From Leptospiraceae bacterium (GTDB taxonomy: Bacteria; Spirochaetota; Leptospiria; Leptospirales; Leptospiraceae), in NCBI GenBank assembly GCA_016711485.1, contig JADJSX010000013.1, positions 150,889 to 214,888 on the forward strand: 64,000 nt of DNA. Reading direction: 5' to 3'. Made by a program: the position numbers and the translations under genes. Position 1 is the stretch's first letter. Each line of letters begins with the position of its first letter. Below the pieces are notes generated by a model. The model did not search any database. It worked only from the letters and a program-made list of their open reading frames with translations, and was not told where the DNA came from. Shown one piece after another: positions 19,910-21,388 of this stretch.

Positions 19910-20263
19910 ATGAAATTTATTTTGTTGATTAATCTACTTTTTTTCTCCTATTTCACTTTCACAGATAAAATATTTTCCCAAGAGCCAAAAATCAATTACC
20001 AAATTTATGTAAATCAAGATAGGTTCATCCAACCTAAAAGGCAAGAAGGTTATTTTGATTGTAGTAAACAGAATCCTTGTCAAATTCCATTTCGTTCGGA
20101 TTATAATGATTATCTAGACTTAAAATACAATCATAAGAAAAAACTAGTGCTACTTTGTCAAGTCGGAGTTGAAATAAAGATTGTACAAAAGAAAGGATTT
20201 ATAATATTGTTCGTGTGGATTTCATACTTAACGAGCATTCCGATTTATTTAGCGAGTATATAA
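19910..20263 (+). CDS. small secreted hypothetical protein, 3' end probably replaced by IS insertion
   Basis: Signal peptide MKFILLINLLFFSYFTFT; reading frame runs into the IS left inverted repeat (LLCQVG is the translated IR) at about 20143. Confidence 0.3.
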   Translation: MKFILLINLLFFSYFTFTDKIFSQEPKINYQIYVNQDRFIQPKRQEGYFDCSKQNPCQIPFRSDYNDYLDLKYNHKKKLVLLCQVGVEIKIVQKKGFIILFVWISYLTSIPIYLASI

Positions 20264-21388
20264 ATTCTTTCGATCCATTATGGGTAAGGAAAGAGCAAAA
20301 AGAATATTTTGAGAAGACCTTAAAAGGTTTTAGTTCAGAGATAAAACGGAAAAATATTGAGCGGATTTCCGAAACGATAATAGATCAGGATTATCAAAAT
20401 CTCCATCATTTCATTACAACTTCTCCTTGGGATAAGAAGGATATGAATGAGATACGTATTAACTTTATGCGAGAGCATAGTAACTCTTATCCGACAAAGA
20501 AAGCGATATTAGTCATTGATGATTCTGGTGTTCTTAAAAGAGGCAATTCGACAGAAGGCGTTGGGCATCAATATATTGGTCAAGTTGGAAAAGTGGCTAA
20601 TGGCAACGTATTCGTAACCTCACATTTAGTGAGTGAGTTCAAGCATATGCCATTAGATATAAAAGAATTTATACCCGAAGATAAAACTAAAACCAAAGAA
20701 GAACAAAAATTTACAACAAAGATAGAGATTGCGATTTTTCTAATAGAAGAAGCTATTCGACGAGGAATCAAATTTGAATTCGTTGTTGCAGATGCATGGT
20801 ATGGTTCTAGCCCTAATTTTACTGACTATTTAGAGGCTAAAGGTTTGAAGTATATTGTATCAATTAAAAGTAATCGAAATATATTTTACAAATTTCCTAA
20901 TGATTTTAAAAGTAGTGAGCACAAGATAAGTGAGTTACTTACACTCATAGAGCCTATCGCATTTCGCCCCCTTGATATTAAATTATCATGGTTCGAACAA
21001 GAAAATTTATTTTGTTAGGATGGATTTAAAAGTAAAAGGAGTTAAGTGGAAAAGTTGAATTGAGAGGGGGCAGGGTAGTTATTTTGGCTGTCGTCGGAAG
21101 GTATTCTATAGAGAAGTAAAAGACTTTTGAGCAGACAATATCAAGTAAGGGTATGGATAGAATTCTTCGACATTGGACATTATGCGTAACCTACAGCAGG
21201 TGCAATGGCTACACATGGAAAGGCCAAGGAATTCGTAAAAAAAATTGACCTTTGGAGACGTTCAAACTGTATGCAGGATTTATTTGAAAAAAAGAATAAT
21301 TGAACTCGCTACTTTAGATCCTAGTATTTTCCTAAAACACCTTGATGGAATTTTAATAGCCCTTTAAGATGACAAAGTCGCATTAGAA
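20143..21388 (+). mobile_element. degenerate IS701-family insertion sequence (truncated/frameshifted transposase)
   Basis: Left end tgctactttgtcaagtcgg (20145-) and right end tgacaaagtcgcatta (to about 21388) form inverted repeats; interior encodes an IS701-type DDE transposase that stops early. Confidence 0.55.
20215..21018 (+). pseudogene. IS701-family DDE transposase, C-terminally truncated
   Basis: N-terminal FSEYINSFDPLWVRKEQKEYFEKTLKG and core ILVIDDSGVLKRGNSTEGVGHQYIGQVGKVANGNVFVTSHL plus VVADAWYGS (second D) match IS701 family; 267 aa versus about 400-450 expected; the remaining 370 bp has no intact frame. Confidence 0.65.

Follow-up and report, generated by a model that had tools for sequence, protein, structure and literature searches.

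The locus studied here raises the question of how transposases of two unrelated families come to lie between the same terminal inverted repeats. Within the window, the whole 64-kb stretch of Leptospiraceae DNA that was analysed, the 16-bp sequence TGCTACTTTGTCAAGT is present without mismatch on the forward strand at 20148-20163 and at 28889-28904, and inverted partners are found at 21367-21382, with three mismatches, and at 30389-30404, with one; the motif that an earlier note had reported as common to both loci is thus confirmed. The first pair of repeats encloses a gene for an IS701-family transposase (Pfam DDE_5, NCBIfam NF033540) and the second pair an IS3-family transposase (HTH_Tnp_1 and rve, NCBIfam NF033516), and a blastn comparison of the two interiors returned no hit, in agreement with the two families and the unrelated interiors described in that note. 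The sharing of terminal repeats across unrelated transposase families would be remarkable; here it very probably reduces to a nested insertion, which is a common thing, with the IS3-family insertion sequence (IS) sitting inside a MITE of the IS701-family IS and no ends shared between the two transposase families.

The repeat is specific to these four ends within the window. Its core 9-mer, ACTTTGTCA, occurs there four times, always at one of the ends in question, against a chance expectation of 0.74, and four occurrences were reached in none of 100 shuffles. The motif is itself palindromic, reading TGCGACTT-TGTC-AAGTCGCA, and the terminal repeat of this subgroup is a 20-nt palindrome whose TGTC loop reads inward, in the same orientation, at both ends. 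The right-end string that had been proposed for both elements, TGACAAAGTCGCATTA, holds for the two of them from (T)GACAAAGTCGCA onward, but its inner three bases fail in the first element, hereafter element 1 (ATGACAAAG versus CTTGACAAAG). The TAA and TAG bases previously counted as element ends belong to target-site duplications, and the true ends read TGC(T/G)AC...GT(C/A)GCA. A scan of a genome collection for TGCNACTTTGTCAAGT returned at least 120 loci, most of which are chance matches or conserved coding sequence of Campylobacterota; the informative loci among the matches listed are 13 from Leptospiraceae/Spirochaetota and one from Planctomycetota.

The owner of these ends is identified by intact relatives of the IS701-type transposase. 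A protein search with the fragment encoded in the window recovered 378-aa relatives, among them P0135, which is 93% identical and scores 274 bits against NF033540, and P0142, which is 73% identical; the intact insertion sequences measure 1338 and 1337 bp. At 18 loci with intact 378-aa transposases, all from other assemblies, TGCGACTTTGTCAAGTCGC stands 65-67 bp upstream of the ATG and its inverted copy ends 134-135 bp past the stop codon, with 16-19 nt of the left end common to the 18 copies. Sixteen of these copies have two readable flanks, and in 14 of them identical 4-bp duplications lie directly outside the ends (TTAA, CTAA or ATAG, and mostly TTAA); in the short-read contigs L143 and L146 the duplication is off by one base. 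The intact copies occupy more than ten different and unrelated host contexts. The fixed distance of the repeat from the IS701-type gene, the 4-bp duplications outside it and the unrelated contexts together imply that the repeat moves with the gene: the shared ends are a property of the 1338-bp IS701-family IS. A Planctomycetota homologue with 40% protein identity (L068) has the bases ctag followed directly by TGCTACTTTGTCAAGT about 70 bp ahead of its gene, and here too the first 16 nt are identical.

Element 1 represents the 1338-bp type in decayed form. It spans 20148-21382 on the forward strand (1235 bp) and shares 90% identity, across 1234 aligned bases, with an intact copy (L141, positions 1934-3271), compared with which stretches of 31, 42 and 12 nt are missing and many small indels, around ten, are found past IS position 840 or so, that is, in the last third. 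Its left terminal inverted repeat, TGCTACTTTGTCAAGT at 20148-20163, is the same as the ends of the intact copies, and its right repeat at 21367-21382 (minus strand), which reads AGATGACAAAGTCGCA on the forward strand, matches the right end AAGATGACAAAGTAGCA of the intact copies L141-L148. The truncated transposase ORF lies at 20215-21018 on the forward strand and matches DDE_5 (E 2.6e-41) and NF033540 (200 bits, cut-off 150). With a product of 267 aa in place of 378 aa, together with the deletions and indels, element 1 is, as judged from its sequence, a dead member of the IS701 family. Target-site duplications, which the earlier note had suggested looking for, are present here as they are around the MITE and the IS3 described below: the left copy is CTAG (20144-20147) and the right copy TTAG (21383-21386), three of the four bases matching. 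The interrupted host gene (19910-22105, forward strand) encodes a signal peptide and a PQQ-like beta-propeller, the C-terminal part of which matches PQQ_2, and deletion in silico of 20148-21386, which removes element 1 and one flank copy, restores a single ORF of 318 aa.

At the second locus the 16-bp repeats bound a non-coding shell around the IS3-family element, and not that element itself as had been claimed. Removal of the IS3 in silico leaves a 293-bp remainder with no transposase, with IS701-type ends that match those of the IS over 16-19 nt, and with a TTAA/TTAA duplication, of which the left copy (28885-28888) overlaps the stop codon of a GGDEF gene (27590-28888) and the right copy lies at 30405-30408. 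The left part of this MITE, at 28889-29103 on the forward strand, consists of the left inverted repeat TGCTACTTTGTCAAGT, interior sequence and the left arm of an internal hairpin (CTTACTTTTTTCTTTTCTTTC, 29083-29103, forward strand), which pairs with the right arm at 30331-30351; the corresponding halves of the MITE in L122 and L137 share 99% identity with this left part. The right part, at 30327-30404 on the forward strand, comprises the loop CCAA, the right hairpin arm, further interior sequence and the right inverted repeat ACTTGACAAAGTCGCA, and the same half is found at other loci. Once the IS3 is removed, the hairpin (CTTACTTTTTTCTTTTCTT) has a perfect polypyrimidine/polypurine stem of 21 bp closed by CCAA, at -20.3 kcal/mol with DNA parameters.

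A relative of this MITE with an uninterrupted hairpin is seen in Leptospiraceae UBA2033 (L049), where a transposase-less element of 285 bp, 82% identical to the MITE, has the same outer ends and no IS3; the same hairpin arms, here of 20 nt each, enclose a loop of 7 nt, and the interior can be aligned with 28889-29082. This is the sole empty hairpin. The window's own species yielded no copy of the exact MITE without an interruption, and all MITE copies recovered from the population of the window contain an IS3. An independent assembly (L122) has the same arrangement as the window. The right half of the MITE is joined to at least four other host flanks (L123/L124/L137, L134, L135 and L139), the right end meeting at least five different host flanks, and the edge of the MITE is exactly where the contig L121 breaks off. 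The IS701-type IS and the MITE occur together in the metagenome samples ERZ964752 and ERZ22158293. As terminal repeats and 4-bp duplication are common to the two, the MITE is presumably mobilized in trans by the IS701-type transposase. A derivation of the shell from element 1 by internal deletion was considered and rejected, as blastn finds no similarity between their interiors; with an interior unrelated to the IS, the MITE is not a simple internal-deletion derivative of it. The earlier suggestion that one family mobilizes ends belonging to the other, or that the border is MITE-like, therefore stands in its second part, the outer shell being a 293-bp MITE with IS701-type ends, while the use of these ends by the IS3 transposase finds no support.

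The IS3-family IS has its own ends and its own duplication. In ten other contigs, copies with 99.3-99.7% identity all start with TGGACAG and finish with CACTCCA, in differing flanks. Because these outside copies all have the ends TGGACAGACACCG...GGTTCACTCCA, which fall at 30323 and 29104 in the window, the IS3 proper is placed at 29104-30323 on the minus strand, as an element of 1219-1220 bp nested in the loop of the MITE hairpin, in place of the extent of 28886-30412 given before. Its termini are TG...CA, and its 26-bp imperfect inverted repeats, the left one reading TGGACAGACACCGTTTTTTTGGAATC on the minus strand (30298-30323) and the right one, delimited by comparison with the other IS3 contigs, TGGAGTGAACCTCTTTTTTTGGAATC on the forward strand (29104-29129), match at 19 of 26 positions. 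Comparison of the flanks shows a 3-bp duplication, TTC at 29101-29103 and again at 30324-30326; in L124, L136 and L139 the duplicated bases are CTT.

The coding sequence is that of an IS3-family element, with matches to HTH_Tnp_1 and rve/rve_3 and a score of 209 bits against NF033516 (cut-off 160). The orfA gene (HTH_Tnp_1) lies at 30043-30267 on the minus strand, and the orfB frame (HTH_21 and the rve integrase core) at 29128-30042 on the same strand, in the -1 frame relative to orfA; a -1 frameshift at the A-run around 30009-30019 would give access to orfB. Six other copies have a run of six A residues near 30120 and a 98-aa OrfA, and the window copy has one A more, which breaks and shortens orfA. 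At least 11 fragments of this IS3 are present in a long-contig Leptospiraceae MAG. A metagenome scan with the consensus of the IS3 repeats, TGGANNNANCNNNTTTTTTTGGAATC, gave seven chance matches and no IS3, and an exact-protein look-up returned no record for the window OrfA, the 205-aa version of OrfB in the window or the MAG proteins P0122 and P0124.

The additional IS3 copies, all of them on short-read metagenome contigs, place the element repeatedly in the same hairpin. The flank is MITE hairpin on the right side in nine of ten cases and on the left side in five of nine, leaving one right and four left flanks that are not MITE. Relative to the MITE, the IS3 in the hairpins of L124, L137, L139 and L140 is turned the other way round from the window copy; its junctions vary, and the bases of the loop remain part of the MITE. 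Across these short-read contigs, some of which are probably chimeric, we distinguish at least three to four junction types no more than 5 nt from the tip and in both orientations (with a caret at the junction: CTT^cccatg, CTTTC^ccaag, ^ttccaag, and the reversed window copy with TTC); the junction ^ctttcccaag is seen in L123 and L140 and ^ttccaag in L135. Several contigs (L123, L135 and L138, and L137 internally) have MITE sequence to the right of the IS3 but other sequence to its left, and no matching 3-bp duplication is found in them. These mismatched pairs suggest that some of the contigs are chimeric, so that the count of independent insertions is soft. We consider a real preference of the IS3 for the tip of the hairpin somewhat more likely than not.

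The explanation that competes best with such a preference is that a single ancestral IS3 inserted in the hairpin by chance, that the IS701-type transposase went on to spread the composite, and that the variants arose later, by recombination or inversion between copies. The identical junction CACTCCA^cttcccatgaaag stands beside at least three host flanks, at site A (L124/L137), site B (L134) and site D (L139), as spread of the composite would give, and it could equally mean that the composite travelled as a unit; at a different locus, L137 holds the MITE::IS3 composite in full, bracketed by a clean TTAG/TTAG duplication. However, at least three other junction types lie within a 5-nt window of the tip (L123/L140, L135 and the window copy), and an IS3 that inverted in situ would not acquire a new matching 3-bp duplication. 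A single chance insertion is a possibility that we take seriously but do not favour.

Any preference of the IS3 for the tip may be part of a more elaborate arrangement, which we put forward only tentatively. In this arrangement the IS3 would be a specialist for the tip of the 21-bp hairpin, a MITE-borne analogue of the targeting of REP sequences by IS1397, and the 1.5-kb composite, with its intact IS701-type ends, would be moved whole by the IS701-type transposase, which would give the IS3 a second route of movement. Movement of the composite as a unit would account for the recurrence of one IS3-MITE junction beside several host flanks.

We also weighed the proposal that the 16-mer is part of a REP-like palindrome of the host, into copies of which the IS701-type and IS3-type elements both inserted. 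The palindromic nature of the motif is consistent with this, as are four loci in related Spirochaetota/Leptospiraceae MAGs (L017, L055, L095 and L104) at which the motif stands without a transposase inward of it and without a partner end in the stretch covered, with NTAN on both sides. In the 18 intact loci, however, the motif is found at a fixed distance on either side of the IS701-type gene, with matching 4-bp duplications outside it at almost all readable loci and with unrelated host contexts. Splitting of a single palindrome would not leave the TGTC loop facing inward at both ends, and the ends of the IS3 are about 200 bp and about 80 bp away from the motif. We regard this proposal as very improbable for the 16-mer, which travels with the IS701-type gene to more than ten loci; the earlier idea of insertion into a palindrome does find an analogue one level down, with the IS3 in the loop of the MITE hairpin.

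Slightly less credible still is the reading in which the IS3 itself terminates in the perfect 22-nt repeats at 29083-29104 and 30330-30351 and the closed hairpin of L049 is a remnant of an IS3 with its interior deleted. This was our initial hypothesis for the repeat, and the arms do lie 24 bp past the stop codon of orfB and, on the other side, 63 bp ahead of the ATG of orfA, positions typical of IS3 inverted repeats. It was dropped, as L049 and L124 show the repeat to be the hairpin of the MITE. In quite different flanks the IS3 starts with TGGACAG and ends with CACTCCA (L123, L125, L134, L135 and L138); it is found both ways round relative to the arms, while the loop TTCCCA stays on the right arm; and the arms enclose the TTC/TTC duplication. 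The last of the 22 bases of the repeat is the terminal T of the IS3. That both transposases act on the 16-bp repeat, for which the only argument is the co-occurrence of the motif with the two families, is hardly credible given that the IS3 has its own 26-bp repeats, TG...CA termini and 3-bp duplications, and that there are IS3 copies with no adjoining 16-mer.

Taken together, our data favour a history in which the IS3 is nested inside the MITE, and therefore only looks bounded by IS701-type repeats. The 1338-bp IS701-family IS, with ends TGCGACTTTGTCAAGTCGC... and TTAA-like 4-bp duplications, is resident in this Leptospiraceae lineage, and one copy entered the beta-propeller gene and has decayed into element 1 (20148-21382). 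The lineage also holds the 293-bp non-coding MITE with the same ends and a 4-bp duplication, and the IS701-type transposase, besides acting on its own ends, would act on those of the MITE. One copy of the MITE would have used the TTAA that overlaps the GGDEF stop codon as its insertion site (28889-30404), and the unrelated 1.2-kb IS3 would later have inserted independently at the tip of the hairpin (29104-30323), duplicating TTC. The order of the events at 28889-30404 is one that we infer from this arrangement. The motif thus belongs to the ends of one transposase family only, its other occurrence being explained by nesting, an outcome that the earlier note had itself named as a refutation of its reading, and the undescribed composite that it had entertained comes down to a plain nested insertion.

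The novelty of the locus is limited to fresh examples of familiar elements; the possible preference for a hairpin tip and the palindromic nature of the IS701-type repeat are points of minor interest. The exact ends of the 1338-bp IS701 IS, with its TTAA-type 4-bp duplications, of the 293-bp MITE and of the 1219-1220-bp IS3 should aid the annotation of Leptospiraceae genomes from wastewater. If the tip preference holds in complete genomes, the MITE-internal hairpin would join the short list of palindromic targets of IS3-family elements.

Comparison with known systems places each layer of the locus. The element that owns the ends resembles the IS701 family (ISRSO17-type, COG5659 'SRSO17 transposase') in its single DDE transposase of about 378 aa matching NF033540 and DDE_5, in its size of about 1.3 kb, in its short terminal inverted repeats and in its 4-bp target duplication; unlike such an element, the window copy is truncated and decayed, and the terminal repeat of this subgroup is a 20-nt palindrome of which the first 16 nt are kept at only 40% protein identity. 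The shell resembles bacterial MITEs, being 293 bp long and without a transposase, with the terminal repeats and the 4-bp TTAA/TTAG duplication of a co-resident IS701-type IS, and occurring at several loci, with assemblies breaking at it; it differs from them in that its interior does not come from the IS and in its long internal polypyrimidine/polypurine hairpin. IS1397, ISKpn1 and ISPsy8 are IS3-family elements that insert into REP/PU palindromes (PMC1525189). The likeness of the IS3 described here to these elements is one of apparent insertion behaviour, in that an IS3-family element would repeatedly enter one particular repeated palindrome a few nucleotides at most from its tip, facing either way and making a short duplication each time. 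In contrast to these systems, the target here is a hairpin inside a MITE and not a REP/PU sequence, and the specificity is not absolute, as shown by the four left flanks and one right flank that are not MITE.

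The 20-nt palindrome is the IS701-type terminal repeat itself, TGCGACTT-TGTC-AAGTCGCA, and it also occurs as lone copies in Spirochaetota MAG_1308 and Leptospiraceae MAGs (comparison loci L017:1920-1975, L055:7350-7400, L095:2800-2840, L104:980-1025 and L036:4375-4420). Neither a transposase on the inner side of the palindrome nor a partner end was found in the sequence stretch around each of these copies. NTAN tetranucleotides lie on either side of the palindrome copies in these related MAGs; some pairs around the lone palindromes are identical (TTAT/TTAT, ATAA/ATAA), while others are one base apart. 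These lone palindromes could be minimal elements of 20 bp; alternatively, they could have originated by deletion between the AAGTCGC repeats common to both palindromic ends. Because the sequence directly past the palindrome in L036 is also present in L031, the L036 copy may instead mark the terminus of some longer repeat and not be a solo palindrome.

At window positions 28885-28912, the left end of the MITE (the transposase-less element with IS701-type ends at 28889-30404), TTAA directly follows the 20-nt palindrome-like end TGCTACTTTGTCAAGTTGGC on the inner side, and this is the same tetranucleotide as the duplication outside the MITE. In L049, a relative of this MITE that lacks the IS3 insertion, the terminal palindrome has CTAA on either side. 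Such flanking tetranucleotides would fit an origin of the MITE from two solo palindromes around ordinary DNA.

The terminal repeat varies between G and T at position 4, where the two ends of one element usually carry unlike bases. The decayed IS701-family copy (element 1; sites 20151 and 21379) and the MITE (28892 and 30401) both have T at the left end and G at the right, the intact IS copies L141-L148 have G at the left and T at the right (L141:1937 and 3268), and L149-L158 have G at both ends.

The IS3-family element nested in the MITE hairpin (29104-30323, minus strand) has as its sole defect one additional A in a homopolymer at 30114-30120, and element 1 (20148-21382) carries numerous 1-nt indels at 20990-21360. 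Should the window sequence stem from long-read assembly, part of these indels could be sequencing errors and not true mutations. One copy of the MITE with its nested IS3 has a tandem duplication of the left hairpin arm, CTTACTTTTTTCTTTTCTTTTTG then CTTACTTTTTTCTTTTCTT (L124:1-62).

Conserved coding sequence in Sulfurovum, Sulfurimonas and Arcobacter genomes contains the 16-mer TGCAACTTTGTCAAGT, in the context accrtagcacagTGCAACTTTGTCAAGTacgtttga...; the matches listed include L020, L022, L028-L030, L041 and at least about 20 other such loci. This Campylobacterota 16-mer has no relation to the IS and gives false positives in motif scans.

In Spirochaetota MAG_1308 another MITE of about 200 bp, unrelated to the first, bears the same terminal repeats (L118:1844-2044, L075:7290-7330). 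In L075, inverted copies of its subterminal sequence (AGATGCGATTAA...CTAATCGCATCT) extend the palindrome both ways, and together they form a foldback-like arrangement.
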